Shown here piece after piece: positions 1 to 53,511 of a DNA stretch of 64,000 nt. A program made the translations under genes and the position numbers. The notes under the pieces are model-generated. The model had not been told where the DNA came from. It did no database searches and saw only the letters and a list, made by a program, of their open reading frames with translations. The stretch comes from an uncultured Pseudomonadales bacterium. Lineage in GTDB: Bacteria; Patescibacteriota; Microgenomatia; UBA1400; PJMF01. Every line of letters begins with the position of its first letter. Positions within the stretch are counted from its first letter, which is position 1. The stretch is from NCBI GenBank assembly GCA_964637295.1, contig CAZWWE010000001.1:188312-252311 (forward strand), written 5' to 3'.

Positions 1-3000
1 AATATATTTTTGGTCGACTAATTGACGCTTAGCTTGAACCAATTCTGCTTGCAAGGCTTTTTGCACATCTGGAGAAATGTTTTGTGCTTGCAATTTATTT
101 TGTAGCGAGTCGATTTGTCTACTTAAATCCAAAGCACTGCGATAAGCTTGTCGACTAGCCTTTGGTCTTAAAAGATCTGCTGCTTTCTGCCATAAAGAAC
201 GATTTTGATTAGAAAGATTGTCGGTAATTTTTTCCAAAGAGGCAATTTCCGTATCTAAGGCTGTCAAACGAGTCTGATTGTTTGGATCAACTGCACCATC
301 GTCATTGACGAGAGTTTGTTTTTCTTGTCTCAAGGCAGATAGCTTGCTTAAGCTGCTTTCTAAAATAGCCAAAGATGATAAGTTTTCTTCTGGGCTACTG
401 AACAAGCGAGAAGTTTGCTCGTTCTGAATGAGAGCAGTCATTTGTTCTTGAACCGTTTTTTCATTTGGAGCAAAACTCTCAACAAGAGCTTGTTTTTGAC
501 TGTCTATGGCCAAGAGATCATTTAATTTGCTCAAAGCTTGGTTGGCTTCAACCTGTGTCACCAAAGAGGCATTTAATTTTTGCAGTGATTCAATTTCATT
601 CAAGAGATTTGCTGACGTCTTCAGTTTTTGCACCAACTCTTGCCTTTGATTCTGGAGGCGACTAAGCTCAGTGTCAGATAAAAAAACACCTCTGTTCGTC
701 ACTTCCGCATCGATAGAGTCAATCTGTGCTCGCAGAGTGCCAATCTGCTTGATGTGATAATCAATCTCTGTTGCTTTACTGTTGAAGTAACTAGCTGATT
801 TTTTGTTGTTGGCGCTTGCTTCTTGTGCCAAAGCTCTAATTTCACCAACGATACTTCTCCCACGCGCCGCATATTCAGCTGGATCAACACTGGCGTCAGC
901 CAACTTATTTTGGATTTGCGCCTTCGGATCTAGCTTGACTATCTGCTCTTGCAAAGCTTGGCGTTGCGCAGTGAGTTCTTCCAAATGTCTTTGCTTAAAT
1001 AAATAAGATCTTGCTTTTGAGGCAGCCTTGTCACTTAAACCATTCAAGACAGCCAGTTGCCCATCTACTGCATCAATTTGTTTTTGCAGATCAGCAACTT
1101 GAAGGGCAGTTTTTTCAGCTGCCACAGTGGTTTTGTGAGCTTGATAATTTTTATAACTGCTGCTAATTTGCGCCACATTTTGACCAGCACTCAAAGCCAA
1201 GCCAATCCAGGCATTGACGCAATCTTGTTCAGAAAAAGCACCGCTGCTGCCATAACAGGCCTGCGCCACTTGTCGCACATCAACCGCTGCTCCAGCCGGT
1301 ACGTTCATGGCATCTAAAACAAAATCGATTTTATTGGTCAAAACAGTTGGCCCAAATAAACCAAAGCTATTACCGGCCACTCCAGAAGCAGCCACAAAAG
1401 CCCCTAAAGTACTAAATGCTCCTTCTTTAAAAGCAGCGTCACCAAACTTCTTGCTCGAAGCAAAAGCATTGTAAGCAGCTAAACCAGAATTAACTGTGTT
1501 ATAAGAATTTAAGCCAATGCCTCCTAATTGGCCAGTGCGCGTAAGCAATTGACCAGAATTAGCAAGTAAATTGGCAGTAGTAGCAGTCGTAGCTTTACCC
1601 GCCAAACTCGTCAACAAACCGCCGCCGCTAGTCAAAGCCGCCACCGCAGAGTTGGCCAGCATCAAGTTGCCTTGTTTATTAAGCGTATCAACTTGTAATT
1701 TTAAATCTGCTTCTAATTGCTTAATTTCTTCTGGGGCGGCACCGCTTTCTTGATAAGATTGCAAAATCGCATTTCTTCTCGAATCAATGTCAATTCTTTG
1801 CATTTCTAAAGCCTGAGCCTTCATGCCCGCCCCTTGATAGAGAGAAAAGGCGGAAGAAGCAAGGCCTAGGCCAACTGCTGGAGCGGCGCCAGCCAAAGTC
1901 AACAAAGGTAAAGTAGCAATCGCCACTGAAGGTGCTACTACTTTAGCTAATTTTTCATAATTTAATTCCTTGCTCGAACGTTGCACTTCACTGTCATTAT
2001 TAAAACTTGCGAAATCCTGAAATTTGATTTGATTTTCCGGCGTGGTCGCGATGTATCGATCATATAATTTTTGTGTGATTACATCTTGTTGAGTTACTTG
2101 ATAATCTTCAGTGACTTTTTGAGCTTCTGCCACTGGATCAAGGACTGCTAAATTTAAATTGGCCGATAAATCCGCATTGCGGAGCAATTGATTATTCATG
2201 TTGACGGTCGCTAAATAAGTACCAGCATAAACAGCGGCTTCTTTTACTGATTCAACTGCATTTTGGAAATCTTTGGCAGCATAATAACCAGGCTGAGCTG
2301 CCTGATAGTTATAATCCAGTAGTTTTTGACCCTGCGCATCTTTTGCGTGACTGGCTCCAAGCAAAGCAACGTTAGCAATGCTGGTATCAGCAGGCCCAGT
2401 GTAATTGTAATATTTACTTGTGGCGTAATTAGTAGCGATGTTTTGTGCCACGTCTACGTTAGCTAGTTGCGTACTCAACTGATTGAAGGTTAAGTTGATA
2501 GCCTGACCACTATTTAAACCCAAGTCTGCGATTGTAAATTCTCGATTAAATAAATCATCGTTCATCAAAGCATTGCCATAAGATAAGCCCCAAGTGTAAT
2601 TGGAAATAGCTGAACGATTGGCTGTGGCGTAAGAGAAAGCTTGCGAAGCATTAAAAATTTGACTGGCAGCCACAGCAGTCTGATATTCTTGCATTTTGGC
2701 AGTTTGATTGTCCACGGTCGCATCAAAGCTTTTGCTGACTGCCGAATTTGGTCCAGACAAGGCCAGGGCAAGACCATAGTTACTAGCTTGGGCGGTACCA
2801 AAATTTGCCAAAGCACTATCAAGGAGACTAGCGGTTTTATTTTTCTGACTGCTTTTCAGAATTTGATCTGAATACTGCAAGGCCATGTCGGGAATGTTGA
2901 CCCCTTGTCCCGCGTACATTTTGTCGAGCATTAAAGCCAAAGTGGTGGTTGCTTGCTTTGTATCGTTAAAATTTTCCCTTTGACAATCAGTGATTTGTAA

Positions 3001-4887
3001 ATCTTGGCACAACTTCGTCAATTCTTGACCAGCATCTTGGGAAAAATTGGCAATAGCCTGATCGAGACGTTTAGGAATTTCTACTTTTTGTCGATAAAAT
3101 TCTTCACCATATTGACCATAAATATTTTTCAGCAAAGCCCGCTCGTCACTTAAAATATTGGCCGAAGCAAGATCGGAGGATTGTTTATTTTGTACATAAT
3201 AATTATTTAAATAAGTGACGTCCTTAGTTTGTTCATAAAAAGTTAGGGCCAATTGTGGATTATATTTAGCAATTTCTTTTTGCAACTCAACACTAGTCAT
3301 GCGATAAGCTGGCTGCCTTTTTACATAAAATTGATAAAGTTTCTCTAAATCCGCTTTATCTTCTTTGCCATCACCAAATTGTTGCACCAATTGTTGCTCT
3401 TGGATCACAGTACTTCTCTGTGTTAACAAAGCCTCAGCAGCCTTTTGGGCTTCGGCCGGAGTGGTGTCGGGCATTTGCGCCAAAATTAAAGCAAGTAAGT
3501 CTTTGGCTACCAAGCGCTTGGCATCTTCGGTTTCGATCAGACCCGCATCTATCGCTGCTTTTCTGAGCTTATTGAGATCAGTGCTTGCACCAGAGGCATA
3601 GTCTTGATAAGCCTTATTTAAAGTGGCGATTTTGCTTGCTGCGGCTTGATCAATTTCTGATTGAGTCGCTTTTCGCTCACCTGAGCTTGCTTGGTCTTGC
3701 GTCGCTTGCTGCTGTGCAGTCTGTTTTTGTGCCGCGCTTTGCGCTAAAAATTGTTGACGGTCTTGCTTGAACTTATTGGCATCAATACCAAAAGCTCCCA
3801 AAATTCCATCTAAATTATTATATTTTAAGCTTGGATCATAACCAAAAATTTCTTTGAATTTATTACTCGCCACTTGTTCTAGGTTGGCATTTTCTGCTGC
3901 TCCAATTAAATTGCCATACATTTGAGAAATGGCTGTATTCACAGTAATTTTTGAAGCTGCGGCACTATTCAGCTGGTCTAAAACTTGATAATGAGCGGCT
4001 AAATCGGGATAATCAATAATTCTTTGATTAAAATCAAAAACAGCTTGTTCTTCTTGATTAAGTGCTTCACTTTGTGCCTTAGTCTGCAAAGCTTGATTTT
4101 CAAGCTCTGCTTTTTTTTGCAAAACTTCTGGACTGGTCAAGGCTGTTAATAAAGCTTGTGCTTTGAGTAATTTGGCATTGGCTGCTTGCGCATTGTATAA
4201 ATCACCAACTTTGAAATCTATTCCGTAAGTTGCTTTGTACAGTTTTTCTAAATCGGCAAGCTCACCGTTATTTTGATATTTTTCAACAGCCTGCTGCCAA
4301 TCGTCATATTTGACTTCAATTTTTTTAAGATGTGGATAACAATAATCGCCCTTACTATTATCACAATTACTACTACGATTGGGCATCACCAAGTAACCAT
4401 TGACCACTGAACCGAAGGCATAGCAATTATTGCCAATTCGAAAACTTTTGCCCCCACAGTTTTCGCCTAGTTTTTCTACACTGCCAGTTTGATTTTTGAT
4501 TGTTTCACTACCAAAGCTCAAGCTTTCATAGGTTTTTTTGGTTTCTAAATATGGATAATTATAACGACCAGAATTAACCACAATATAACCACCAGCCAAT
4601 TCATCACCAGGCATATAACAAAAATTATTCATCCAAACACCATTACAGGCACTTTGAGTCTGTGGTCTTTGTCCGGTGTATGAAGTTTGGAGAATTCCCT
4701 TTTTACTAACTGTGCTGGGACTGGGATTTGCAGGGTCGCAATAAGGCTGACCAGGTTGACAACCACTAGCTTGCTGCCGAATGTCTTGCTGGTTTTTCAA
4801 TAATATAAAACCTGTAGCCAATCCTCCTAGCAAAAAAAGCAAAATCAGGGCAGAAATAAAATAGTATTTTTTCTTGTACGACAACAT
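1..4887 (-). CDS. Giant secreted/membrane-anchored coiled-coil surface protein, at least 1629 aa. The N-terminus lies at 4887 and the C-terminus runs past the left edge of the window.
   Basis: I translated the minus strand by eye from the ATG at 4885-4887 and it stays open to position 1 (MLSYKKKYYFISALILLFLLGG...). A stop sits 3 codons upstream of that ATG. The supplied ORF track misses it because the ORF is truncated by the window. It has an N-terminal signal anchor and a Cys-rich module CNGVWMNNFCY. Long Q/A/L-rich coiled-coil stretches follow, with Gly/Ala-rich hydrophobic segments in the middle. Confidence 0.75.
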   Translation of the reverse strand, partial: MLSYKKKYYFISALILLFLLGGLATGFILLKNQQDIRQQASGCQPGQPYCDPANPSPSTVSKKGILQTSYTGQRPQTQSACNGVWMNNFCYMPGDELAGGYIVVNSGRYNYPYLETKKTYESLSFGSETIKNQTGSVEKLGENCGGKSFRIGNNCYAFGSVVNGYLVMPNRSSNCDNSKGDYCYPHLKKIEVKYDDWQQAVEKYQNNGELADLEKLYKATYGIDFKVGDLYNAQAANAKLLKAQALLTALTSPEVLQKKAELENQALQTKAQSEALNQEEQAVFDFNQRIIDYPDLAAHYQVLDQLNSAAASKITVNTAISQMYGNLIGAAENANLEQVASNKFKEIFGYDPSLKYNNLDGILGAFGIDANKFKQDRQQFLAQSAAQKQTAQQQATQDQASSGERKATQSEIDQAAASKIATLNKAYQDYASGASTDLNKLRKAAIDAGLIETEDAKRLVAKDLLALILAQMPDTTPAEAQKAAEALLTQRSTVIQEQQLVQQFGDGKEDKADLEKLYQFYVKRQPAYRMTSVELQKEIAKYNPQLALTFYEQTKDVTYLNNYYVQNKQSSDLASANILSDERALLKNIYGQYGEEFYRQKVEIPKRLDQAIANFSQDAGQELTKLCQDLQITDCQRENFNDTKQATTTLALMLDKMYAGQGVNIPDMALQYSDQILKSSQKNKTASLLDSALANFGTAQASNYGLALALSGPNSAVSKSFDATVDNQTAKMQEYQTAVAASQIFNASQAFSYATANRSAISNYTWGLSYGNALMNDDLFNREFTIADLGLNSGQAINLTFNQLSTQLANVDVAQNIATNYATSKYYNYTGPADTSIANVALLGASHAKDAQGQKLLDYNYQAAQPGYYAAKDFQNAVESVKEAAVYAGTYLATVNMNNQLLRNADLSANLNLAVLDPVAEAQKVTEDYQVTQQDVITQKLYDRYIATTPENQIKFQDFASFNNDSEVQRSSKELNYEKLAKVVAPSVAIATLPLLTLAGAAPAVGLGLASSAFSLYQGAGMKAQALEMQRIDIDSRRNAILQSYQESGAAPEEIKQLEADLKLQVDTLNKQGNLMLANSAVAALTSGGGLLTSLAGKATTATTANLLANSGQLLTRTGQLGGIGLNSYNTVNSGLAAYNAFASSKKFGDAAFKEGAFSTLGAFVAASGVAGNSFGLFGPTVLTNKIDFVLDAMNVPAGAAVDVRQVAQACYGSSGAFSEQDCVNAWIGLALSAGQNVAQISSSYKNYQAHKTTVAAEKTALQVADLQKQIDAVDGQLAVLNGLSDKAASKARSYLFKQRHLEELTAQRQALQEQIVKLDPKAQIQNKLADASVDPAEYAARGRSIVGEIRALAQEASANNKKSASYFNSKATEIDYHIKQIGTLRAQIDSIDAEVTNRGVFLSDTELSRLQNQRQELVQKLKTSANLLNEIESLQKLNASLVTQVEANQALSKLNDLLAIDSQKQALVESFAPNEKTVQEQMTALIQNEQTSRLFSSPEENLSSLAILESSLSKLSALRQEKQTLVNDDGAVDPNNQTRLTALDTEIASLEKITDNLSNQNRSLWQKAADLLRPKASRQAYRSALDLSRQIDSLQNKLQAQNISPDVQKALQAELVQAKRQLVDQKYI

Positions 4888-4907
4888 GCCACTTCAATCA
4901 ATATATT

Positions 4908-6719
4908 CTACAAAGGTTTTTTTGAAGCCATATTTTTGGCCAAAAAATAACTCCATAAGCCCGCCATCATAAAAAAGCTGCCCATTAAAATTAAGCTAAA
5001 AGTCGTGCCCACAGAACCAGCGCTGTATTGACCAGCACTGGTAGAAACAATGCTAGAGCCACTAGTTATCGTTGGCGTTGTTGTTGCGATGGGCATCACT
5101 GATGGAGTTGCAGTCAAAGTTGGAACATAAGGATTGCCAGAACCATAGGGTATACTAGCAGTCGGCACTGGCGTCGTTGTAGGTGAGGTTGTCTGAGCTA
5201 ATTGTCTTGGAGTGGCGCTCGGATCAACCGTAAAACTATAAGTTTTAGTCACTTCTTTACCAGTTACTGGATCAATATAAGTATAAGAGGCAGTGTGCTC
5301 TCCTGGTTCCAAATTTTTACCCAGATTGGCTACATCTAAAACAAGATTGCCGTCGGCGTCTGTTTGCATGGTTTCGTCAATTTGAGTATCGGAATGAATC
5401 ACAATTCTTACCATGGTGTTGGCTGGCAGAGTCGCTTTAATTTGTGGCTGGGTGGTGGTTAATACGGCTGGCGCTGAGGCTTGTTGCTGATCCAAGGTGT
5501 TAAGATCTAGCACTTCTGGCTTAAAAGTACTGCTATCTGCAGATGATAAATCACCCAATAAACCTTGTAGTGCACTATCTTGACCACTGGCACTGGCTTG
5601 GGCACTGGCTGCTGAAGTGGCGTTATTTTGCAAAGCCAATGCGGCTGCAGATGAATCAGATGAATCGCTGGCGGTTATCGTCTCTGCTAATAACTCCTCT
5701 TTGTTCAAATCTTCTAGTTCAGCACTGGCACTAGCATCAGTTGAAGCTAAATCAGCGTTTTGTCCCAAAATTAAATCTGCCACTGGTTGAGCGCTAGCAA
5801 TCGTCGTCTTGACACTACTTAATAAATTTGGCTCAATGCCTTGCACTTTAATTTCTAGCTGACTTTCGTCACTTAATTGAGCATAAGTGCTTTTGTCCAA
5901 ACTGAAAGCATTAGCTAAGGAGATGCCAAAACTGCCTGAAGCTTTAACTAAACTAGATAAAGTACCTAGTTGATCACCATAAACGTAAACAATCGCGCCT
6001 TCTGCCGGCTTACCATCAGCAAGCATCACATTACCATAAACGGTTTGATTGTTGGGTGGCGATTGGCTTTGCTTGGCGATCGTAGTAATTTTGTAAGCTT
6101 GGCCGTCATTATCAAAAGTACTAGAACCAGTGCCTAAGACATAATAATAATCTTTACCTGGCTCTAAACCGCGCACCGTCACGTGGTGCAGACGATAATC
6201 TTTAACTACGCCTGATAGCTGATCACGATCATCGCTGGCTTGCTTATTCAGTGTTTTTGCCTCTTCGCCATATTTGATAAAAGCTACTGTGCTTTCATCT
6301 GTATAAAAAGAAACTGTAAACGATTTGTCAGTCAAATTACTAAGGCGAATATTTTTAGGCGTAGTTTGTGGAGTTGCTCTGGGCGCAAAAACGCCAGTGC
6401 CTTGACCAAATAATAGAACACCAGAAATTAACGCGACAAATAAAATTAACAAGCCAAGAATGGTAGGAATTTGCTTTTTACCCGCCAATTTTGCAGATTT
6501 TTTCAATTTAACTTGGGTCGGATTTTCACTGAAATCTACAGCATCCATTTTGGGTGCCTCGCTAACAGTTGAAGAGGCAATGGGCTGCACAACTTGAGTA
6601 GCTGAGGCAGGCCTTGAGTCAGCATTGAGCGTCGACTTGTCCTCTTGAAGGATTTTTTGATCTAGCTTTAAATCAAGCACTTCTTGGTCAGTAGTAGAAT
6701 GATTAAGTTTTACCTGCAT
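4908..6719 (-). CDS. Surface protein carrying a purple-acid-phosphatase-N-like FN3 domain, a CarboxypepD_reg-like domain and an Ig-like domain. It has both an N-terminal TM and a C-terminal hydrophobic anchor.
   Basis: 603-aa ORF. The motifs RLHHVTVRGLEPGKDYYYVLG (FN3 / PAP-N-like) and YGNVMLADGKPAEGAIVYVYG (carboxypeptidase regulatory-like) are present. A TM lies near residue 90, and the C-terminus (LILMGSFFMMAGLWSYFLAKNMASKKPL) is hydrophobic with a basic tail. The gene ends 21 bp upstream of the giant gene. Confidence 0.6.
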   Translation of the reverse strand: MQVKLNHSTTDQEVLDLKLDQKILQEDKSTLNADSRPASATQVVQPIASSTVSEAPKMDAVDFSENPTQVKLKKSAKLAGKKQIPTILGLLILFVALISGVLLFGQGTGVFAPRATPQTTPKNIRLSNLTDKSFTVSFYTDESTVAFIKYGEEAKTLNKQASDDRDQLSGVVKDYRLHHVTVRGLEPGKDYYYVLGTGSSTFDNDGQAYKITTIAKQSQSPPNNQTVYGNVMLADGKPAEGAIVYVYGDQLGTLSSLVKASGSFGISLANAFSLDKSTYAQLSDESQLEIKVQGIEPNLLSSVKTTIASAQPVADLILGQNADLASTDASASAELEDLNKEELLAETITASDSSDSSAAALALQNNATSAASAQASASGQDSALQGLLGDLSSADSSTFKPEVLDLNTLDQQQASAPAVLTTTQPQIKATLPANTMVRIVIHSDTQIDETMQTDADGNLVLDVANLGKNLEPGEHTASYTYIDPVTGKEVTKTYSFTVDPSATPRQLAQTTSPTTTPVPTASIPYGSGNPYVPTLTATPSVMPIATTTPTITSGSSIVSTSAGQYSAGSVGTTFSLILMGSFFMMAGLWSYFLAKNMASKKPL

Positions 6720-6799: not shown

Positions 6800-7279
6800 T
6801 TAGGGCATTTCGGACATAGTACTCGTACTACTTGCTTGATTATTGGTTTCATCACCTAATTCTTCAGTTATTGTGTCGCTTGTTACTTCAACCGCTGCCT
6901 CAGCTGTTGCCTCAGGGTTTGTTTCCACACTTGTTGTTTTTTCAGCCTCCTCCATTTCTTCTGGTTTTGTTATGTCAACTAAAATGCTTTCTTTAGTCAT
7001 TTCGTCTTGATCAAAAACAAAAATGGAAAAATCATTTAGTTCTTCTTGCGTAAAAGCTCGCTGTTGACTAATCTCTTCAAAAACTTTTGATTCTAATCTT
7101 GGCACAAAAGACTTAGCCAACTCTCTCAATTCAGGAGAGATGGAGCTAGTCTTACTAGTCGCAAAAATACTGACTAAAATCCATAAAATAATCAAAACCA
7201 AAAACAGCACTCCCAACCACAAGAGTTTTTTATTACGGCGAAGTTTACTTAGTTGACGCTGTAAGTCATTGTTTTTCAT
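6800..7279 (-). CDS. Single-pass membrane protein with an acidic C-terminus, hypothetical. It may be a component of the pilus or surface-assembly operon.
   Basis: 159-aa ORF with a basic N-terminus, one TM (LLWLGVLFLVLIILWILVSIF) and an acidic tail. Its start overlaps the upstream PilO-like gene by 4 nt. Confidence 0.5.
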   Translation of the reverse strand: MKNNDLQRQLSKLRRNKKLLWLGVLFLVLIILWILVSIFATSKTSSISPELRELAKSFVPRLESKVFEEISQQRAFTQEELNDFSIFVFDQDEMTKESILVDITKPEEMEEAEKTTSVETNPEATAEAAVEVTSDTITEELGDETNNQASSTSTMSEMP

Positions 7280-7902
7280 TTTTTTTCAGTTACTTGACTA
7301 TCATAATAAGGCAAATTAATGCGTATGACCGCTCCTAAATCTTTTTGATTGCGATTATTGGCCAAACTGAAATTAATTTGATCCACCAAAATCATTCTTC
7401 TAGAATTCATCAAGTCCTCAATAAATTGTCTAATCTGTAAATAATCACCAATTACACTCACGTTGAAAGTCAATATTTGACGCGTAGCCTGTGAAGCGCT
7501 AGCGGCAACTAATTCTTCTGGAACGGCCGAAATAGTTATCCCTTTAATCACCAGTTGATTATTTCCGGCAATTTTTTCCACAATCTTCAAACCAGTCATT
7601 AAGCTGGCGGTTTTAGGCATGGCCTCATCTAATAAATAAAACTGAGAACTGAATTGCTGGTATTGAGCTTGAGCAGTGTTGAGACTGGCAATTTTTTGCG
7701 CTAGCTGTTCATCTAATGCTCTTTTATCTTCAATTTCTTTGACCAAAAGAGACATGGTTTGCAAAGTCGGCTTAACTGCAAAAACGGCAAAAAAGACTAC
7801 GGCTAAAATAGAAAAAATCAGCTCTAGAGAAACCATTGCCACAGGATTTTTATAAAAATCTAGCAAAGCTTGCTGTAGCTGTTCTTGTTTACTTTTTGCC
7901 AT
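7276..7902 (-). CDS. pilO: PilO-like type IV pilus assembly protein
   Basis: 208 aa with one N-terminal TM followed by coiled-coil and alpha/beta periplasmic regions. It sits immediately downstream of the PilN-like gene with a 14-nt overlap, matching the usual pilN-pilO order. Confidence 0.5.
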   Translation of the reverse strand: MAKSKQEQLQQALLDFYKNPVAMVSLELIFSILAVVFFAVFAVKPTLQTMSLLVKEIEDKRALDEQLAQKIASLNTAQAQYQQFSSQFYLLDEAMPKTASLMTGLKIVEKIAGNNQLVIKGITISAVPEELVAASASQATRQILTFNVSVIGDYLQIRQFIEDLMNSRRMILVDQINFSLANNRNQKDLGAVIRINLPYYDSQVTEKK

Positions 7903-8461
7903 TGAATGCTACTTTCGCTCGCATGTCAAAATTAAAGCCCGGCGCTCTTTCGCCCCGAGATTCAATTTTATTAATACTAACCTCAGTAAAACGAGGATTT
8001 AATTGTAAATTATTGACTAAAACATTGAGAGCCTCCTGTGATAAAGCAGAACCAGTAAAACTAATTGCGTCTGGTTTAATTAACAAAGTTTCAAAAACCA
8101 CTTGATTGGGAATGTTTTCATTTAAAATTGGAAAAATCTCAGCCAAGTTTGCTTCTTGTTTGAATTGTTGATAATCTTCAATTTGTTTTTGCACAAAACG
8201 AAATCTTGTTTCTAAATCAGCATAAGACGCGATGACTCGTTCTTTTTGATTAATCGAAGAATTTAAATCAGTGACCATACGATCTAGGGTAAAGCGCGAA
8301 GCAAAACTCAAAATCACAATTAATTCTGTAAAAATCACAATATAGCGACCAATTGACAAGGCCCACTTCAAAAATCGCCCAAAAGTCGTTTCAAAAAATG
8401 GGTCTTGAGGAACAAGATTGACAGTAATATCCAATTTGCGATTGGCAGGCTTTTTTGGCAT
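7889..8461 (-). CDS. pilN: PilN-like type IV pilus assembly protein
   Basis: 190 aa. The short N-terminal cytoplasmic segment carries ITVNLVP, an INLLP-like PilM-binding motif. One TM (YIVIFTELIVILSFA) and a periplasmic coiled coil follow. Confidence 0.55.
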   Translation of the reverse strand: MPKKPANRKLDITVNLVPQDPFFETTFGRFLKWALSIGRYIVIFTELIVILSFASRFTLDRMVTDLNSSINQKERVIASYADLETRFRFVQKQIEDYQQFKQEANLAEIFPILNENIPNQVVFETLLIKPDAISFTGSALSQEALNVLVNNLQLNPRFTEVSINKIESRGERAPGFNFDMRAKVAFNGKK

Positions 8462-8514: not shown

Positions 8515-10200
8515 CTAGACTTCTTTATTTTCAATTGAACTATCAAGCAAGACTTCTGAAGAATCTTCAATGGCTTCACGCCATTTGCCAAATTTTTGCA
8601 AAATATTGCGAATGTAAAATAATTCCTTAACATCAAATAAAACCGAAAAATAAACATAAACTAAGCTCGCCATGCTGGCAGTGGAAATCGTTAAAGCAAT
8701 CAGGTCAATGGTGCGGGAAGTATCAAACACCACTTCATCTAAAATTTTGAAAGGCAAATAAAGAAAAACTGCCATAAAAAAACTTGCTCCCAGCATTTTG
8801 CTTTGCGACCACCAAAATTCTTTACTATTAAAACAAGCAATTTTTCGATTAAGTAGAATTACAAACAAAATGAGTTCGACAAAGGCAGTGAGTGAGATTG
8901 CTAAAGCTAAACCCAGTACTCCCAAATTGAATTCATAAACTGCTAAATAAGCCGTTAATAAGTAAATCGCTACGGTGGCAATGGTAATCAAAAAAGGCGT
9001 CTTTGTATCTTTGAGAGCATGAAAAGCTCTGACCAAAAGTTGCACCATCGCCTGAGCAGTGATGGAGATCGCAATAATCGCCACTACTTTGCCCGTTAGA
9101 ACGGTGGTTTTCCAAGGAAAATTATAGGTACCAAAAATTAAACGAATAATGGGCACACGCAGAATCAATAACAAAACTGAGGCCGGCATCGCAAAAAATG
9201 CAATTTGGTTCAAAGATTGCAAAAGTAAGCGGTTAAATTTGGCTCGATTTTCCCCGGCTGACTCCTCTGATAAAAAAGACAAAGAAGCTTGAGAAATGGG
9301 CACTCCAAAAAAACGAATTGGTAAAGTCATCAAACGACTAGCTAATTTCAAGACCACAAAACTCAAGTCGCCAATAGTGGTAGCAAAAAATCCCATAGCT
9401 AAATTTTGAAACTCTGTCACTCCGACTGTGAGCAAACGTGGTGGCATCAGAGCAAATAGTTTTTTAACTGATGGAAATTTCAAATTAAAATCAAAGTTAA
9501 AGCGAAAACCCAACTTCCAAACTAAAGGCAATTGCACCAACATGTGTAAAAAAGCACCTAATAAAACTCCTAAACCAGCTGCATAAATGCCAAAATATTT
9601 AGCCAAGAAAATTGTCCCCAACATGATGCCGAGATTATAAAAAATAGGGGCTAAAGCTGGAGCGATAAAACGTTGATAAGCTTGTAAAATGCCAGTTAAA
9701 AAATTGGAGATGGCAAAAAATAATTGTGCAAAGAGCATTAGACGAGTTAATTTGACTGCAATCGCAATTTGCTCCAAAGAAAATTCTTTTCCTGTGCGCA
9801 AGCCGGTGATCGGTTCAGCAAAAATAAAAGCTAAAATCGACAAAATCAAAAAAACCAGCATTACGTAGTTCATGACAATAGCAGTAAAACGGAAAGCTTT
9901 GGCTTCATCTTGTTTTTTTAACTCACTAAAAAGAGGAATAAAGGAAGCCGCCAATGCCCCCATCACAATCAATTGAAAAATCATGTCTGGAATTTGAAAT
10001 GCCACTTGAAAGGCCTCATAGGCTTGTTGCGAAGCATTGCTGCTAAAAAATTGTTTAATCAGCACTCTTTCGCGCCATAGACCAAAAATTGAAGAAAAAA
10101 TATTTGCCAAAGTAATCACTAGAGCCGCAGAAAGAATAGAGTTCTGTTTTCTCTCTAACCATTTACCATTATTATTGAAGATTTTTGCCAAAGAAATCAC
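8515..10200 (-). CDS. murJ: Lipid II flippase MurJ (MviN family)
   Basis: 561-aa polytopic membrane protein with the MurJ/MviN pattern of about 14 TM segments and conserved Arg/Asp-containing loops. Confidence 0.8.
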   Translation of the reverse strand: MISLAKIFNNNGKWLERKQNSILSAALVITLANIFSSIFGLWRERVLIKQFFSSNASQQAYEAFQVAFQIPDMIFQLIVMGALAASFIPLFSELKKQDEAKAFRFTAIVMNYVMLVFLILSILAFIFAEPITGLRTGKEFSLEQIAIAVKLTRLMLFAQLFFAISNFLTGILQAYQRFIAPALAPIFYNLGIMLGTIFLAKYFGIYAAGLGVLLGAFLHMLVQLPLVWKLGFRFNFDFNLKFPSVKKLFALMPPRLLTVGVTEFQNLAMGFFATTIGDLSFVVLKLASRLMTLPIRFFGVPISQASLSFLSEESAGENRAKFNRLLLQSLNQIAFFAMPASVLLLILRVPIIRLIFGTYNFPWKTTVLTGKVVAIIAISITAQAMVQLLVRAFHALKDTKTPFLITIATVAIYLLTAYLAVYEFNLGVLGLALAISLTAFVELILFVILLNRKIACFNSKEFWWSQSKMLGASFFMAVFLYLPFKILDEVVFDTSRTIDLIALTISTASMASLVYVYFSVLFDVKELFYIRNILQKFGKWREAIEDSSEVLLDSSIENKEV

Positions 10201-14793: not shown

Positions 14794-15969
14794 TTAATCC
14801 TTCCTAGCCAAAAGCAGCCGCTTTGGACTAATAGCTTCGTCATTGTTTCCAAAGCTGCCAGCATTATCAAAAAAATACTCTTTCAAGGCGCCTCCATTTG
14901 GATCTATGACAGTGATTTTAGCGTTGGCGACATCAATATCTTTCACCACAACCCAATGTCCACCTCCACCAAGATTGCCAAAATTACCATTTAACATAAT
15001 TTGCCAGTTACCTTCTTTTTGATATTTTTTTAAATTGTCGATGAGGTCACTATAATTATTGTTTAAATTGGCCTGTCTTATCTCATCTTCTAGAACACCA
15101 TTGCCATTAACACCTGTTCTCGTTTCATAACCTAATTTTTTCAATGCTTCCGCATTTGCCTTCAAACTAGTACCATTGGCGGTAATTCCGTTGGTATTTC
15201 CGATATCATAAAGTCCTAAAACTTTATCTGGAGAAACACCTGTCAGATTTGCTACTGATGTTACGCCACAGCCAACATTGCCAAATTTAATATTTTCTTC
15301 TATGTATATATTTTTCCAACGATTGTCTAATTGGTTAAAAAAAATATCATTTGCGTATTTAGCCGTAGTGGAAACTATCGGCGTCGGAGAAGCACTTACA
15401 GATTTTTCTGTTTTTTGTACATCAGGTTTTGGAGTTTTTTTTGTAGTTTCTGCCGCCAAATAAGACTCAACTAGTTTAAGCGATTGCAAAGTTGGATATT
15501 TATAATTATTAATAGTATTTGGGGGCACCACGACATGAGTTCCTCCAGGCAAAACTTCCCAGTATAGATAGCAGGTATCATTAAGCCAATTGCCCTGTCC
15601 ATTGCAGCTACTTTTTGTTGTTGGTCTATTAGTAGTTGAAGTTGAAACAGTAGTTGGAGTCGGAGTTAAAGTCGAAGTCGGAATTAGAGTTGGGTTGGTG
15701 GTTGGAGTTGAGGTTGTGGTTGGAATTAGAGTTGGACTAGTAGTAATGGTTGAATAAGGTTCACTTTCAAAAGCTTGCTGTCGATTGTCTTGCGTTTGCT
15801 TACTAAGCAAAAAGCTAACAAAAAGACCGATCGCCAAGAAAAAAACAATAAACACATTAGCTAAATTTTTTATTTTCTTTTTTGGAAAAATAAAAGACGT
15901 CTTTAGATCATCATTAACTAAATAGTGGCGATATTTTTCTGGTAAGAAATCTCTAGGATTATTCATCAT
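14794..15969 (-). CDS. Membrane-anchored extracellular C39-like (papain-fold) cysteine peptidase with a Thr/Pro-rich stalk
   Basis: 391 aa. The N-terminus carries DFLPEKY, then a TM, then the juxtamembrane motif SKQTQDNRQQAF. A T/P-rich linker and the motif CNGQGNWLNDTCY follow. The C-terminal domain carries GNVGCGVTSVANL (C39-type Cys motif) and GGGHWVVV (C39-type His motif). Confidence 0.65.
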   Translation of the reverse strand: MMNNPRDFLPEKYRHYLVNDDLKTSFIFPKKKIKNLANVFIVFFLAIGLFVSFLLSKQTQDNRQQAFESEPYSTITTSPTLIPTTTSTPTTNPTLIPTSTLTPTPTTVSTSTTNRPTTKSSCNGQGNWLNDTCYLYWEVLPGGTHVVVPPNTINNYKYPTLQSLKLVESYLAAETTKKTPKPDVQKTEKSVSASPTPIVSTTAKYANDIFFNQLDNRWKNIYIEENIKFGNVGCGVTSVANLTGVSPDKVLGLYDIGNTNGITANGTSLKANAEALKKLGYETRTGVNGNGVLEDEIRQANLNNNYSDLIDNLKKYQKEGNWQIMLNGNFGNLGGGGHWVVVKDIDVANAKITVIDPNGGALKEYFFDNAGSFGNNDEAISPKRLLLARKD

Positions 15970-16085: not shown

Positions 16086-16202
16086 TTCTGGCCTCGACCT
16101 ATCTTCGCAGGGGGAGAACCCCCAACTATTGTCAGCGCTGAAGCGTTTCAAGACTCTGTTCGGGATGGGAAGAGTTGGGACCACCTCGCTCTAGAGACCA
16201 GA
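16086..16202 (-). rRNA. rrf: 5S ribosomal RNA
   Basis: The minus-strand sequence ...GGTGGTCCCAACTCTTCCCATCCCGAACAGAG...GGGGTTCTCCCCCTGCGAAGATAGG... matches the conserved core of 5S rRNA. Confidence 0.85.
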
Positions 16203-16389
16203 ATAAAACGTTTTTACAAATTTGTGCCATCGTACGGTTTTGCACGAAACACAAATTATGTTAATTAGCGATTGTTCGCTAATAAGTGAAGCTAACTGCT
16301 TTATACCTGAGTATAAAAGTTAGTAGTAAAAGATAAATCTTTCACTACTAACCTACTCAATAAGACTTTTCAAAAAACTGATAGATATT

Positions 16390-19300
<2,911 letters not shown>

Positions 19301-19551
19301 ATTTACAAAATATCGAATTTGTTTACACAAATTCTTGTATCATTGAAATGTTCTCTTACTCAGTCATATTGAGTAACAGTTAGTTTTTAACTTAAATAAA
19401 ATTTAAATCAAAAATTTTCTTCACTTATTAAAGAACAAATTTGACGCATTTGCGCCAAACACTAGCTCTTTGCTAGTTATTAGTCTCTAGAAATTTCTAG
19501 TTTAGAAAAATCCAAAGTCTAATAAGCAGCAAATAGTCTATTTTAATTTGC

Positions 19552-19628
19552 TGGTGGACCCTAAGGGGCTCGAACCCTTGGCCTCCACATTGCAAATGTG
19601 GCGCTCTAGCCAACTGAGCTAAGGGCCC
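19552..19628 (-). tRNA. tRNA-Ala (anticodon UGC), with CCA encoded
   Basis: It folds into a cloverleaf with anticodon loop UUUGCAA and the G3:U70 identity pair. It lies just upstream of the 23S gene, as in a typical rRNA operon spacer. Confidence 0.9.
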
Positions 19629-20013: not shown

Positions 20014-22362
20014 TTACAACAACTTCGCTCTTTGATTGATTTCCAATTCCACCAACTCTTTGTCCTTACCATATTTAAGACGAGAAAGTTGTTTGATCAT
20101 TTCAGCTAACTTGGGGTTCATGCGCGCTTCTTGTGCCTTAATATCCTTATAAAGTGACATCGAAAAAGCAGGGACTGGTTCGTTATCAACAATCGTTTTG
20201 ATGTAAGCATGATATTTTTCCACATTGGCCAAATCATTCTCATTAAAAGTTGGCGCAAATTCATGCTGCAAGAAATTAGCATCAGTTACACCCACGCGGA
20301 AAGACACCATCGTACCAACGTTGCCAAAAACAGCGTTTTTGATTTCCTCATCAATTTGACCGATAAACTGGTTGGCCACAATTAAATTGAGACGATATTT
20401 ACGAGCTTCAGACAAAATGGCAGCGAAATCCTCAGTGGCAAAATTTTGAAACTCGTCAACATATAAGAAAAAATCTGGACGTTGATCCATAGGTACATTC
20501 TGACGACTCATGGCGGCAGTTAAAATTTTTGGCACCAAGATCAAGCCTAAAAACTTAGCATCTTCTTCACCCAAAATACCTTTAGACAAATTGCATAAAA
20601 CAATTTTCTTTTCATCCATCGCTTTACGAAAATCAAAAGCACTGGTTGGCTGGCCAATGATATTGCGCATAGTTTTATTGGTCACAAAACGTCCAAACTT
20701 AGACACAATGTAGTCCATCACCTCAGACTTATGGAAATCAGAGGTATTGGCAATCTGATCAGTCCAATAACGCTTGACCATGCCGTCTTTGACCAAAGGC
20801 AAATATTCTTCCACAAACTTCGCATCGGTCAAAATACGCACCATTTCAATAAAAGTACTGCCAGGCTTACACATGATGGTCAACATGGCATTACGAATGG
20901 CGTGCTCAAAACGCGGACCAACAATACCAGTGTGATGGGGATCATAAAGCTTATACATCAAACCAATAATCGAGCTCGCTACAAAATGCATTTGTTCTTC
21001 TGTTTCCGCTTCCATAATATTCATGCCCATGGGTCGCTCTAAATCAGAAGGGTTGAAATAAATCACGTCCTCAGCTCTCTCGGGAGGCATGAGCTGCAGT
21101 ACGTCTTCCACTAAATCACCATGCGGATCAATCACCGCTACTCCATGTCCAGCCTCAATGTCTTGCAAGACCATATCTTTCAAAAATTCAGATTTACCAG
21201 TACCCGTTTTACCAATGATATAAGTGTGACGACGACGATCATTTAGACCCACATAAATATCTCTTTCTTCTCCCCGATAAATCGATTTGCCCATAAATAA
21301 ACCTTCTGTCGGAATTTTATTTGGAGCTGGAGCATTTTTGGCGGTCAAGGTTCGAATATGATGAGTTTCAACAGTTTTATTGGGAAAATGCATGATCGTT
21401 GCCAACTCTTCCGTATTGAGAATGATTGTATTTCTATGAAACATGGGCATGTAACGATAAATAAAATCAACCATAAAAAGGTGTTTAAATAAGAAAAAGG
21501 CAGGCTTTTTAAAGTGATTGTAGGTGGAAGAAAATTGAGAAAAAGCACCCACTATATTATTTAAATTTGACTGAGCCGTAGTAGCGCTGTTTGCTGAAAC
21601 CACCACTCTTATAGAAACTCTAAATCCAGACTTACCCACCTTATTATTGATGGCTTCAATTTCTTTTGGATCGTGAGTGTAATTTGCCTTATCTGGATCA
21701 GCCTCACGTTTTTTTTCTTTTTGATTATGGCTCAAACCTTTGTTTTGCCAGCGATTACCCTCTGGATGCATCAAAATTTGTAAAGTGGCTCCTTCGCCAT
21801 CGCCCATTTTTGACATGGCAGAAGTAATCAGAGACAATCCATCTGTAGGTAAATCTTTGTAAGTTTTAATCGGATAAAAATCAGCTTTATCTAAAACTAC
21901 TGAGGTAAAAGCAACTCGACCTTGCTCATTAAAAATATTTACCTCATCCATTTCGCTGATGGAAGCTGAAGGATAAGCGCCATTAATTTGTTTTTCGACA
22001 AAATCTCGAATTGATTTATGACAGGTTACATAAAAAGCAATGTCTTCTTTCATGCCGACAATTTCAAAACTTAGAGTGTCTTCTGGTTTCAGAAAAGATA
22101 GTAAGCCATCTTTTTTAAGCGAATAAAGACCGGCGAACATTTGCTCGGCAGCATCAATTTTAATTTCATTATTTTTGGGCAATTTTACTAATAAAGTTAC
22201 AAAATTAAGTACGTAGTTTTCACGGCGCTGATTTTTAATTAGAGAAGCAATTAAAAAAATCATCAAAACCAATAAAACTAAGAGGCTAATAAAAACAAAA
22301 GCAGTAATAAAAAAACTATTTAATTGAGCTAATAAGTTTTGAGTTTGCTCATTCATGATCAA
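20014..22362 (-). CDS. Membrane-anchored P-loop NTPase of the VirD4/TraG (T4SS coupling protein) or FtsK-HerA superfamily
   Basis: 782 aa with an N-terminal TM. Walker A is YIIGKTGTGKSEF, followed by VAVIDPHGDL, and Walker B is FFLYVDEFQNF. Confidence 0.5.
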   Translation of the reverse strand: MIMNEQTQNLLAQLNSFFITAFVFISLLVLLVLMIFLIASLIKNQRRENYVLNFVTLLVKLPKNNEIKIDAAEQMFAGLYSLKKDGLLSFLKPEDTLSFEIVGMKEDIAFYVTCHKSIRDFVEKQINGAYPSASISEMDEVNIFNEQGRVAFTSVVLDKADFYPIKTYKDLPTDGLSLITSAMSKMGDGEGATLQILMHPEGNRWQNKGLSHNQKEKKREADPDKANYTHDPKEIEAINNKVGKSGFRVSIRVVVSANSATTAQSNLNNIVGAFSQFSSTYNHFKKPAFFLFKHLFMVDFIYRYMPMFHRNTIILNTEELATIMHFPNKTVETHHIRTLTAKNAPAPNKIPTEGLFMGKSIYRGEERDIYVGLNDRRRHTYIIGKTGTGKSEFLKDMVLQDIEAGHGVAVIDPHGDLVEDVLQLMPPERAEDVIYFNPSDLERPMGMNIMEAETEEQMHFVASSIIGLMYKLYDPHHTGIVGPRFEHAIRNAMLTIMCKPGSTFIEMVRILTDAKFVEEYLPLVKDGMVKRYWTDQIANTSDFHKSEVMDYIVSKFGRFVTNKTMRNIIGQPTSAFDFRKAMDEKKIVLCNLSKGILGEEDAKFLGLILVPKILTAAMSRQNVPMDQRPDFFLYVDEFQNFATEDFAAILSEARKYRLNLIVANQFIGQIDEEIKNAVFGNVGTMVSFRVGVTDANFLQHEFAPTFNENDLANVEKYHAYIKTIVDNEPVPAFSMSLYKDIKAQEARMNPKLAEMIKQLSRLKYGKDKELVELEINQRAKLL

Positions 22363-35726: not shown

Positions 35727-36455
35727 TTATTTTCTTTTAGCTAAAATTATCACACTGGATCCAATTGGTAAATTAATGTTTTTCTCTATAAGAAACAGGT
35801 CTATCTTAGCGAGAAATAATAATAAAGAATTCAACACTGGATTGATTTTGCCAACAGTTTTTATTTTTTTGGGCTTAAATGTCTTCAAAAACATTCTTTG
35901 TAATACAAAAAGAGGAAAAGTGGCAAAATAAAGATAGGTAGAACGGATAATTTTAAAGTCATGAATTGCTAATAAATTCTCCAGCTCCTTTTTTCTAAAT
36001 CTTTTCTTCGCCATCATTTGCTCATCGTGCACACTCCAAAAAAAAGGTAAGGCACAGTCAGTGATTAAGAGATACCCATTTTTCTTTAATAAACGACTCG
36101 CTTCTCTTAAAACTGCTTTTTCATCAACTTTCTTATGATATAAAACATCAAAAACAGTAATTAAATCAAAATTTTTTTCATTCACTGGAATTTTGTTGAT
36201 TGAAGATTGGATAACTTGCAGTTTTCTTTGTTTGCAAAAATCAACAGCCCTGCTGTTCTGTTCCACTCCAGTTACCTTGCTCCACTGCTCTAAAAATTGA
36301 GTCATGCCTCCAGTGCCACAGCCGAGATCTAAAATCTTATTTTCTTTACTCAACTTAATTTTTTTTAAAAAAATTGCAATAAACAATCTTTTGGCAACAA
36401 ACCACCAATGAGCGGTTTCGGCTTGAAACATAGATTGATATTGAGATTGTTGCAT
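35727..36455 (-). CDS. Class I SAM-dependent methyltransferase
   Basis: ILDLGCGTGG motif I. Confidence 0.8.
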   Translation of the reverse strand: MQQSQYQSMFQAETAHWWFVAKRLFIAIFLKKIKLSKENKILDLGCGTGGMTQFLEQWSKVTGVEQNSRAVDFCKQRKLQVIQSSINKIPVNEKNFDLITVFDVLYHKKVDEKAVLREASRLLKKNGYLLITDCALPFFWSVHDEQMMAKKRFRKKELENLLAIHDFKIIRSTYLYFATFPLFVLQRMFLKTFKPKKIKTVGKINPVLNSLLLFLAKIDLFLIEKNINLPIGSSVIILAKRK

Positions 36456-36457
36456 TT

Positions 36458-39537: not shown

Positions 39538-40619
39538 TTTTGATCCAACAAATTTTTACTTATCTCATCAATTTTCATTTTCCAAGTATTTGCATTGGCT
39601 ATTTTTTTTTGAAAAAGTTGTTGTTCAATAGTCAAAGGACGATTTAAAAAAGCATTAATTGCTTTTGAAAATTCTGCAGCAGTTTTTGCAATGCTAATAA
39701 ATTCAGGGAACTTTTTCAGTTCTTCGATTTCTGTGCTTATCACAGGCTTACCAGCGTAAAAATATTCAAATGTTTTCATTGGATAGCAGTAACGATTGAA
39801 TAAATATCTATCATTGTAAGGAATAATACAAACATCAAATTGTTCGATGATGTCAAACATTTCCTGGCGTGGCTGTTTATCAATATGAAAAAAATTTTTA
39901 TGAAAAAACAGTTGATTAATTTTTGTTTCTTCCCCTTCGAAAGAAACGTTTGATTCATGATGCTTGGGACCAACAAAAATAAAATTCCACTGTTGATTAT
40001 TAGCTATTAATTCCAAAAGCAGATCGAAATCTAGCCTCTGGCTCATTTGTCCAACAAAACCAATTACTGGCCTAACTTTTGGCAAATTAAGAGCCGATTT
40101 TTTTCTATCTAAAGTAAAACTAGCCAAATCAAATCCTTGTGGTACGACTCTGATTTCAGTTTTAGCATCTTTTTGATAAAGCTTTTTTAATGTCTTAGAA
40201 ATAGAAAAAACATAATCTGCTTTACTAAGTAAATATTTTTTTTGCATTTGTAAAAGCTTATGTTCTACCAAAATTGGCGAGTCATGATAATCAACTACAT
40301 CAAAAATTGCTTGCCACCACGGTAATTTAAATTTGATTGCTGTAACAAGCTGAGGGAAAAACATCCAGAAATAATATTTTCTTCCTTTTTTAAAAAATTT
40401 GATTGTTAAATAAAACTGCAAGTATAAGAAGTAAATTGCTTTATTTAATTGGTCAATTATTTTATATCTACTAAAAGGAATTAAATTAATCGGATTATAG
40501 TAATTAATTACAAAAACATCGTTATTTTTTGCTAAACAATTTTTTGTTTGCCACAAAAAATCACAAACCTGCTCCTCACTAGAAATATTTGGGATAATAA
40601 TGACTGCGTTTTTTAACAT
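39534..40619 (-). CDS. GT-B glycosyltransferase (GT4-like)
   Basis: The C-terminal motif FDVCIIPYND...CYPMKTFEYFYAGKPVISTEIEEL is present. It is a paralogue of the 46730 gene. Confidence 0.6.
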   Translation of the reverse strand: MLKNAVIIIPNISSEEQVCDFLWQTKNCLAKNNDVFVINYYNPINLIPFSRYKIIDQLNKAIYFLYLQFYLTIKFFKKGRKYYFWMFFPQLVTAIKFKLPWWQAIFDVVDYHDSPILVEHKLLQMQKKYLLSKADYVFSISKTLKKLYQKDAKTEIRVVPQGFDLASFTLDRKKSALNLPKVRPVIGFVGQMSQRLDFDLLLELIANNQQWNFIFVGPKHHESNVSFEGEETKINQLFFHKNFFHIDKQPRQEMFDIIEQFDVCIIPYNDRYLFNRYCYPMKTFEYFYAGKPVISTEIEELKKFPEFISIAKTAAEFSKAINAFLNRPLTIEQQLFQKKIANANTWKMKIDEISKNLLDQK

Positions 40620-40645
40620 TTCCTAGTTTATAATAACCCATAATA

Positions 40646-53477: not shown

Positions 53478-53511
53478 CTTAAATAACCCATTTTTCTGCT
53501 AAAATGGAAGC

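Follow-up and report, generated by a model that had tools for sequence, protein, structure and literature searches.

An open reading frame that very probably encodes the conserved head of a giant, lineage-specific envelope protein in Microgenomates, with a predicted SecA-like motor in its relatives

We asked what kind of protein is encoded at the left edge of a 64,000-nucleotide stretch of DNA (GenBank assembly GCA_964637295.1, contig CAZWWE010000001.1, positions 188,312 to 252,311 of the forward strand; hereafter "the window"), where an open reading frame (ORF) on the minus strand runs off the end of the sequence. A preliminary description, made from the DNA letters, had seen in it a surface protein of at least 1,629 amino acids (aa) that resembles a tape-measure protein or a fibrous adhesin and might form the tip or fibre of a surface appendage. 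Our answer is that the ORF very probably makes up the N-terminal end, a conserved head, of a giant envelope protein that is specific to one bacterial lineage; the assignment to this family is well supported. For the protein as a whole, the best reading is that of a giant envelope protein with a displayed head and a SecA-like motor, possibly exporting itself, and we would give this reading a probability of roughly 0.6.

The minus strand is free of stop codons from the ATG at 4885..4887 down to base 1, that is, over 1,629 codons, just as the preliminary description had it. At a stop frequency near 5%, the probability of such a frame is about e^-90, so that a chance open frame is excluded. On the minus strand the start lies in the context ...ttg TAG aatatattgat TGA agt ggc ATG, and the translation from 4905 reads YID*SG-MLSYKKKYYF... 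(the asterisk marks the stop). Because an in-frame TGA, which had also been pointed out before, lies only three codons upstream, this ATG is the first possible start. It is found 20 nt past the stop codon of the upstream gene, and the equivalent methionine is the start in all relatives, whose N-termini can be aligned with it residue by residue. A pseudogene was considered and rejected: the ORF is intact across 4.9 kb and well conserved. As for base composition, within positions 1-6000 of the window the GC content is 0.41-0.43 in the giant gene and 0.33-0.38 in its neighbours, the ribosomal RNA (rRNA) genes apart; the higher value probably comes from the Ala/Gln/Gly-rich composition of the protein and not from a foreign origin.

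How long is the complete protein, and in which organisms does it occur? An exhaustive HMMER search of 1.84 billion representative sequences with a profile of aa 141-1255 returned only 20 proteins (relatives carry P or L numbers in what follows). Those that are not fragments are 4,092-7,842 aa long, and the full-length ones all come from metagenomes of Microgenomates/"Pacebacteria" (Patescibacteria). Measured against these lengths, "at least 1,629 aa" was a large understatement. The window ORF would amount to about one quarter of its gene, and the full length of this copy is probably about 4,500-6,500 aa; in the relatives, other genes sit after the giant gene. A k-mer-indexed protein search found P0001 as its sole match, also when a five-sequence profile was used; genes of this class escape such a search when their ORFs are truncated at the ends of contigs or disrupted by frameshifts in long reads. 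This protein of 1,956 aa is colinear with the window ORF at 33% identity and is truncated by frameshifts rather than being a shorter form. On its contig it is trailed by ORFs in other frames, beginning at an A-run, which, matched by eye, correspond to the uninterrupted continuation of the intact P0002 (4,562 aa).

We were not able to find any giant loci in a first scan of genome contigs with a poorer alignment. A scan of the GTDB species representatives with a better alignment gave nine further loci in metagenome-assembled genomes (MAGs), whose labels read Candidatus Pacebacteria, Candidatus Microgenomatus, Parcubacteria group or uncultured lake bins; most of the examined loci end before the ORF does, 1,600-4,570 codons after its start. 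The giant family belongs to the freshwater Microgenomates/"Pacebacteria", which are ultra-small Patescibacteria, and a search of the literature found no account of such a giant family in Patescibacteria. The closest relative, L002 (a JGI contig), is 51% identical and reaches its contig end at aa 845. Along its whole length of 1,629 aa the window ORF can be aligned colinearly with P0003, P0007, P0009, P0002, L009, L010 and L013 at 33-46% identity. The relatives are alike from aa 1 to about 1,650 and diverge from there on; as judged from these alignments, the head is the only region common to all of them, and it is exactly what the window holds.

Two of the loci contain broken copies. In L001 (15780-19400; ENA ERZ21831090 contig_6), the locus of P0001, the giant gene is split by frame changes into at least five called genes, the first change lying at an A-run near 15805, where P0002 reads straight through; the breakage goes back either to an error of assembly or to recent decay into a pseudogene. 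In L015 (3407-4915; the MAG of a GTDB representative) the giant ORF ends after 502 codons and the tblastn similarity goes on, which is a frameshift or a pseudogene.

The head begins with a Lys-rich N-terminus and a signal anchor (TM1, aa 1-33; 4789..4887, minus strand, like all features of the giant gene) that are present in every relative. Its Kyte-Doolittle (KD) hydropathy peaks at 2.45 over aa 5-34, with the strong hydrophobic segment itself at aa 12-33, in agreement with the signal anchor seen by the preliminary description. The N-terminus can be written as MLSYKKKYYFISALILLFLLGG...QDIRQQAS. Its last part, the post-anchor motif at aa 34-41 (4765..4788), has invariant Q34, D35, R37, Q38, Q39 and A40; in the form QDxRQQAS it is invariant among the relatives, and two other proteins of the window share the motif. 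Two modules with Cys pairs, apparently of the disulfide type, come next. Module 1 (aa 79-118; 4534..4653; C81...C90, CNGVWMNNFCYMPGDELAGG...YNYPYLE) is a small beta-hairpin module, with the Cys stretch at aa 81-100, where it had been noticed before. Its mean identity is 75% with 13 relatives (all regional means compare the window sequence with 12-13 relatives), and its beta strands are modelled with a predicted local distance difference test score (pLDDT) of 74-87. Module 2 (aa 141-192; 4312..4467; C144/C155 and C175/C183), with invariant cysteines and 63% mean identity, is a diverged duplicate of module 1.

The ectodomain proper (aa 193-960; 2008..4311) is all-alpha in the AlphaFold2 model, with many short helices; it contains the Cys pair 627/635 and the block NIATNYA...YTGPADT (61% mean identity). 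After it comes a second hydrophobic segment (EKVVAP...LP...G...G), which carries an invariant SAFSLYQGAGMKAQAL in the relatives and is followed by the invariant SSAFSLYQGAGMKAQAL (together aa 978-1030; 1798..1956; 57% mean identity). With a KD of 1.87 at aa 978-1017, it is the sole other segment that reaches at least 1.6 in the head of nearly all relatives. The region aa 1069-1245 (1153..1683) consists of amphipathic helices rich in Gly, Ala, Ser and Asn, with a KD of only 1.29 (aa 1074-1096 and 1157-1180). The identities are 46-67% here, and the motifs are LNKQGNxMLAxSAVAxLTS, GxxGGxGL, AASGVxGN and DxxxD..VDxxQV..C1211...C1223..AWIGLALS; the helix LNKQGNxMLAxSAV has a mean identity of 67% and the block DxxxD...VDxxQV..C..C..AWIGLALS one of 61%. 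For comparison, the helical stretches between the conserved blocks reach 23-47%. The Gly/Ala-rich hydrophobic stretches of the preliminary description are thus present (aa 978-1017, 1074-1096 and 1157-1180), and the strong conservation within the family fits the membrane-related role that it had proposed; the amphipathic helices are probably membrane-associated. The last part of the ORF (aa 1246-1629; 1..1152) is the start of a Cys-free helical stalk, rich in Q, L, E, K and A and poorly conserved, in which the gene runs past the edge of the window.

What fold does the head have? It had been described as about 1,500 aa of heptad-like coiled coil, and this does not agree with the AlphaFold2 model of aa 60-1259 (18-sequence alignment, mean pLDDT 63.5). 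The model has small beta modules at aa 60-190, then an all-alpha region that is rich in aromatic residues, with many packed helices of 10-40 residues at a pLDDT of 70-90 up to about aa 870, and low-confidence helices past that point. Only for aa ~1250-1629 do composition and alignment to the relatives suggest a segmented helical stalk. We did not use a crude heptad score, as it failed to tell the regions apart, and no internal repeats were found in the 1,629-aa ORF. Searches of this ORF against Pfam, NCBIfam, PHROGs and the sequences of the PDB gave only noise, and a Foldseek search of the head model against the PDB found no significant fold (best E 0.03, generic alpha-solenoid and ABC-transporter matches). 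To judge by these searches, the head has no detectable relatives outside the lineage. Packed short helices are not a rod, which speaks against a fibrous adhesin or coiled-coil fibre. Homology to SMC-like proteins, named earlier as a possible counter-finding, was not seen either: no SMC family turned up in the Pfam, NCBIfam and PDB searches, the signal anchor is present, and an SMC-like protein was rejected as a candidate.

Since it follows a signal anchor and carries conserved paired cysteines, it is very probable that the N-terminal region lies exposed on the outer side of the cell, and here the surface exposure proposed by the preliminary description can be kept. All the conserved pairs (81/90, 144/155, 175/183, 627/635 and 1211/1223) lie within the head. 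Apart from TM1 and the segment around aa 980-1010, it has hardly any strong hydrophobic segments.

The stalk of the window ORF is colinear with relatives as far as aa 1571 in P0003 and aa 1688 in L009, at 25-45% identity. In the full-length relatives this poorly conserved stretch leads to a P-loop module of about 900 aa, which is of one of two types. Type A is carried by P0002-P0005, P0007, P0009-P0011 and L014; its invariant motifs are TTAGGKTF, YxDELQI, GQSY, AVTGAMADG, GRGGATGDSI and AQAGARIDR. We modelled it with AlphaFold2 (P0003 aa 1775-2591, 8 sequences, pLDDT 73.3, predicted TM-score 0.64) and compared the model with the PDB using Foldseek. The top nine matches are all SecA (E 1e-10 to 4e-6, probability 1.0), and the aligned columns exceed the SecA chain length; the helicases RIG-I, MDA5, RapA and Hef rank below SecA, at E 3e-5 or worse. 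In this relative, then, the type A module is predicted to have the SecA fold with its two RecA-like domains. The order of the motifs (GKT P-loop, DE-x, TG-x-x, GRG-T-D, Q-x-G-R-x-x-R-like) is also like that of SecA, and in the model a helix of 45 residues follows the second RecA-like domain, at the site of the SecA scaffold helix; the SecA domains of Omnitrophota giants are reported to be without scaffold and wing (bioRxiv 10.1101/2023.11.21.568195). Unlike SecA, which is a free, soluble protein of about 850-900 aa, module A is embedded at about aa 1,800-2,600 of the giant, and it shares with SecA 11-12% identity and no Pfam or PDB sequence match.

Type B is found in L009, L010, L013, L017, P0008, P0012 and P0018. 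Its motifs (GALPGMGKT, HADEVDWTF, SLYTGTPET, GAHVGVDT and SQGINRVR) come in the same order as those of type A, and type B may be the same class of motor. With type A, most full-length relatives are predicted to have a built-in SecA-like motor. The head of P0003 is closest to those of L013, L009 and L010, all of type B, yet P0003 carries type A. Head similarity and the type of the central module disagree, and therefore the giant gene recombines between lineages.

The tails behind the motor are mosaic and vary between relatives, whereas the head is conserved. FHA domains are present in P0002 (with an HD-like C-terminus, motifs found by eye), P0003 (with Metallophos and VanY), P0005 (two, with Fic) and P0007 (two, with SLT). 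P0018 has GT10 and Metallophos, L009 has Metallophos, P0012 has PP2C (below Pfam's cut-off) and P0009 ends in a CHAP-like C-terminus (motif found by eye). Further strong membrane segments past the head, one to four each, are seen in P0003, P0007, P0009 and L017. The one at 4996-5027 of P0007 is preceded by a K/R-rich flank and followed by a Pro-rich linker, with SLT at 5899-5970, and P0009 has a membrane segment ahead of its CHAP-like end. Such an order of segment and hydrolase is as expected for a chain whose middle lies in the cytoplasm and whose far end is outside again.

Cysteine is rare behind the head. The relatives have 1-9 cysteines per 3,260-6,540 post-head residues, where 40-80 would be expected from the Cys content of the other 48 ORFs of the window (1.22%); the post-head region is depleted in Cys about 10-fold. 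Paired cysteines, or the exclusion of cysteine, are signatures of exported bacterial proteins. On the other hand, such a pattern would also be conceivable in an extended structural protein.

If we put these features together, the following mechanism can be proposed. The head would stand outside the cell, held by the first two hydrophobic segments, as the fixed end that makes contact. The built-in SecA-like motor would lie on the cytoplasmic side and spend ATP on moving partner proteins, or distal stretches of its own chain that are free of Cys, through the membrane. In this way wall-cutting and effector modules would be deployed at the envelope, or where the cell touches a host. Such self-export is tentative, and we regard it as possible rather than probable. 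A stronger version would make the giant a cis-acting translocation device of an episymbiont, with a contact head, a channel-like bundle of the Gly/Ala helices and its own SecA-type motor exporting Cys-free modules into or onto the host, the PilN/PilO-like and fn3 proteins serving as an envelope-spanning frame; this we consider unlikely.

Giant proteins with SecA-like domains have been described elsewhere. In Omnitrophota, giants with many membrane segments and divergent SecA domains were reported, and self-export was proposed for them (West-Roberts et al., bioRxiv 10.1101/2023.11.21.568195); a SecA-like ATPase is also part of giant toxins of actinobacteria, again with a proposal of self-export (Kaur et al., eLife 2021, PMC8195603). 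As far as can be inferred by analogy, the Microgenomates giant would work like these SecA-bearing giant envelope proteins. It has in common with the Omnitrophota ("Archaeovorin", Dockerin-type) and actinobacterial giants the very long ORF, membrane segments and an internal SecA-like ATPase, as well as Ser/Thr phosphatase and wall-degrading modules and a fast-evolving mosaic content. In both cases the proposed role of the SecA-like domain is the export of the giant itself; the likeness is drawn from the described features. The Omnitrophota giants, too, are hosted by ultra-small bacteria. There are also clear differences: the Microgenomates family comes from a different phylum, measures 4.5-7.8 thousand aa (vs >10,000-30,000 aa in the Omnitrophota study), has few membrane segments where those giants have "numerous" ones, and its motor, unlike theirs, has no Pfam SecA_DEAD match at the sequence level. 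The head with Cys modules and an all-alpha part, without Pfam or PDB relatives, is particular to the Microgenomates family.

Several observations weigh against the reading of a displayed head with a SecA-like motor. The window copy ends at aa 1,629, and its motor and tail are taken from relatives with 33-51% identity. No Pfam SecA model matches module A or B at the sequence level (neither SecA_DEAD nor PPXD nor SecA_SW, and no SecA Pfam family for P0002, P0005 or the central modules), and a PDB profile search with both modules returned no SecA. Type B is without Pfam or PDB support and has a sub-threshold GT10 match in five of six members; hhalign gives a probability of 1% for A against B, and it is type B that is carried by L009, L010 and L013, which are among the closest relatives of the window protein. 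With regard to topology, the charge balance is near-neutral on both sides of the second hydrophobic segment (our own count), the Gly-rich helices are modelled at a pLDDT below 50, and the Cys pair 1211/1223 would be cytoplasmic under a simple two-TM model, that is, one with two transmembrane segments. Finally, five of the 11 longest relatives have no strong membrane segment after the head, and therefore self-export of the tail is no general requirement.

Some of the same features can be read in another way. The giant could be a receptor or scaffold, with a sensing ectodomain on two transmembrane segments and a giant tail that stays permanently in the cytoplasm and organises envelope growth or signalling. 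FHA and Ser/Thr-phosphatase domains would then read phospho-signals, the ATPase would remodel partners, and export would be limited to an occasional C-terminal hydrolase. That the head has just two strong hydrophobic segments and that FHA, Metallophos and PP2C modules recur is what one would expect of such a protein. The position of the gene, between MurJ and a SIMPL-GH18-PBP1a group in all syntenic relatives, offers a further lead, as FHA proteins regulate MurJ/MviN in actinobacteria (FhaA-MviN); still, this flanking synteny may reflect only the close kinship of the genomes. A receptor or scaffold would leave unexplained the roughly 10-fold exclusion of Cys across thousands of residues, the SecA fold of the motor rather than that of a kinase or helicase, and the mosaic, recombining tails with Fic and HD, and we consider it rather unlikely.

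Upstream of the giant gene, all on the minus strand, the window has MurJ (8515-10200), a PilN-like gene (7889-8461; PF05137, E 1e-11), a PilO/GspM-like gene (7276-7902; PF04350, E 3e-7, and NCBIfam GspM), a gene for a small bitopic membrane protein between the PilO-like and the fn3 gene (6800-7279), and a gene for a 603-aa protein with N- and C-terminal anchors and, by Pfam, fn3/Pur_ac_phosph_N and Big_13 Ig-like domains (4908..6719). The PilN-like, PilO-like and Ig-domain genes of the preliminary description are borne out by these Pfam matches. Between the genes from MurJ to the giant, no terminator-like sites beyond chance expectation were found.

The gene order is well kept in the relatives. 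The 603-aa fn3/Big_13 gene lies directly upstream of the giant in L001, L002, L003, L004, L005, L006 and L008. The order S20-MurJ-PilN-PilO-small-fn3-GIANT-...-SIMPL-GH18-PBP1a is complete in L001, L003, L004 and L008; L002 and L005/L006 reach contig ends, and the part that they cover keeps the same order. In L007, the locus of P0012, SufBD lies upstream and PilN/PilO are absent, while a conserved 181-aa ORF and SIMPL are kept downstream. The link to PilN/PilO is thus frequent and not obligatory, and it is inseparable from the general conservation of gene order in a narrow lineage.

These data bear on the idea that the giant is a tape-measure-like protein or fibrous adhesin related to pili, a tip or fibre assembled by the adjacent PilN/PilO genes. 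The run PilN-PilO-small-fn3-giant is co-oriented and tightly spaced, with the order kept in seven of eight contexts; in addition, the head is probably surface-exposed, and the protein has a helical, Gly-rich texture. We find, however, no prepilin-type leader (the class III form G/[FM]TLxE is not in the N-terminus) and no match to a PilY1, minor-pilin or tape-measure hidden Markov model; the fold of beta modules and an all-alpha part is not a PilY1 beta-propeller, and the ectodomain is not a rod in the AlphaFold2 model. P0012 is a giant without PilN/PilO upstream, the adjacency elsewhere is part of a conserved housekeeping synteny, and no PilB, PilC or PilM turned up among the scanned ORFs of the window. 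ATPase, FHA and phosphatase modules are also foreign to fibres. A pilus tip or fibre, as first suggested, is therefore very improbable.

The preliminary description had also seen a resemblance to tape measures. The giant is like them in its length, its mostly helical make-up and its moderately hydrophobic segments rich in Gly and Ala, and some tape measures have C-terminal hydrolases of the SLT type. In a Foldseek search against viral models (BFVD), a tape-measure protein comes first, with E 6e-3, probability 0.28, TM-score 0.07 and a root-mean-square deviation of 41 A. This is the generic score of any long helical protein, and the likeness is one of texture. PHROGs gave only two families of unknown function (E 0.07-0.09), neither Pfam, NCBIfam nor the PDB sequences gave a tape-measure match, and the neighbours (MurJ, PilN, PilO, LepA and rRNA) do not form a cluster of phage tail genes. 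Tape measures, moreover, are without the signal anchor, Cys-rich ectodomain and ATPase of the giant family, and the reading as a tape measure is not supported.

We also considered whether the post-head chain could be contact-delivered cargo, that is, an injected, polymorphic polyprotein of toxins or effectors, with Gly/Ala helices that enter the host membrane in the manner of phage tape-measure proteins or toxin translocation domains, and Fic, phosphatase, HD and ATPase modules that act in the host. A conserved N-terminus with variable mosaic C-terminal modules, the strong exclusion of Cys and the peptidoglycan hydrolase modules would go well with this idea, and so would tape-measure proteins at the top of the viral fold list, although not significantly. 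Small ORFs of the same strand, dissimilar to one another, lie directly 3' of the giant in L003 (26929-27546), L004 (31631-32224) and L007 (23965-24369), in the place expected of immunity genes, and the position would suit immunity-type genes that match variable tails; no immunity family was recognised among them. The next ORF, on the opposite strand (167-184 aa), and SIMPL are conserved in all contexts. Against an injected effector we note that the gene is a single-copy chromosomal gene in housekeeping synteny, with no mobile or toxin-immunity cassette, that no Rhs, LXG, PT-HINT, RTX or similar delivery domain is among the Pfam matches, and that there is no known route across two envelopes for a cargo of up to about 6,500 aa with an ATP-dependent motor and FHA. 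Such an effector is improbable.

The variable distal parts are also reminiscent of polyvalent proteins (Iyer et al. 2017, PMC5512222), with which the giant shares an SF2-type (superfamily 2) ATPase, peptidoglycan hydrolases and HExxH motifs. The genes of polyvalent proteins belong to mobile elements, and the proteins are delivered together with DNA; the word "transmembrane" does not occur in the main text of PMC5512222. The giant, in contrast, is membrane-anchored and its gene chromosomal; the housekeeping context is conserved across species, and a polyvalent mobile-element protein was rejected. The window also encodes LepA, a SurA-like protein and an ATP-dependent ligase; together with its rRNA, VirD4-like and mevalonate-pathway genes, these form a gene set typical of a small Patescibacteria chromosome and not of a phage or plasmid. 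A VirB6-like protein of a type IV secretion system was rejected too, as there was no match and the later segments are weakly hydrophobic. The giant is a member of none of the tape-measure, pilin/PilY1, SMC or mobile-element polyvalent families.

A giant envelope protein with a displayed head and a SecA-like motor would be of interest for several reasons. A host-dependent lifestyle is generally assumed for Patescibacteria. Host contact by members other than Saccharibacteria is largely unknown, and the giant is a strong candidate for the interface. With perhaps 1-2% of a genome of roughly 1 Mb, it would join a unique head, a SecA-type motor, and wall-cutting and signalling or effector modules in one chain, and it would extend the theme of giant proteins with a private SecA to Microgenomates, beyond Omnitrophota and Actinobacteria. 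Its size of 4.5-7.8 thousand aa is tractable for the expression of sub-domains, and the family offers a defined target for cryo-electron tomography, metaproteomics, and ATPase or translocation assays.

Are there other proteins with the same leader? A 391-aa paralog (14794..15969, minus strand; BLASTP E 2e-11) has a signal anchor, the motif QDNRQQA and one Cys module; its orthologues in related MAGs are P0027-P0031, and L001 has it in a syntenic position. In the C-terminal half of the paralog there is a Cys...His pattern like that of papain/C39 (GCGVTS ... GGGGHWVVV), with no Pfam match. A search with a profile of the Cys module found only fragments of giants and the family of this paralog, of roughly 390 aa, and therefore the module is specific to the lineage. 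A third protein (49640-50092, plus strand) has a hydrophobic anchor and QDLRQKA; just after it, on the same strand, lies a 739-aa Cys-rich ORF without a Pfam match (50107-52326). Potentially, QDxRQ[QK]A may be a sorting or processing signal specific to this lineage.

Some other features of the window may be mentioned. The minus strand has a 23S rRNA gene (2,929 nt, full model match, no large insertion), a 5S rRNA gene and an upstream tRNA-Ala at 16086-19628; no 16S rRNA gene was found anywhere in the 64 kb; the rRNA operon is unlinked. A tRNA-Ile with the anticodon TAT (UAU) lies at 53404-53478 on the plus strand, an uncommon way of reading AUA in bacteria, where the usual reader is a lysidine-modified CAU tRNA. 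A 782-aa ATPase resembling VirD4/TrwB-type coupling proteins (20014-22362, minus strand; TrwB_AAD_bind, DUF87/HerA and TraG-D_C) is probably part of a Patescibacteria type IV secretion system. Three adjacent genes at 57436-60803 (minus strand) match thiolase, ACP_syn_III/HMG-CoA-synthase-like and HMG-CoA reductase families, which suggests the upper mevalonate pathway in this small genome. Finally, there are AT-rich islands at 36000-42000 and 46000-48000, with a GC content of 0.26-0.30 (about 0.36-0.42 elsewhere) and genes for membrane proteins matching PMT_2 and Wzy_C (O-antigen-ligase-like); they are probably a variable surface-glycan locus.

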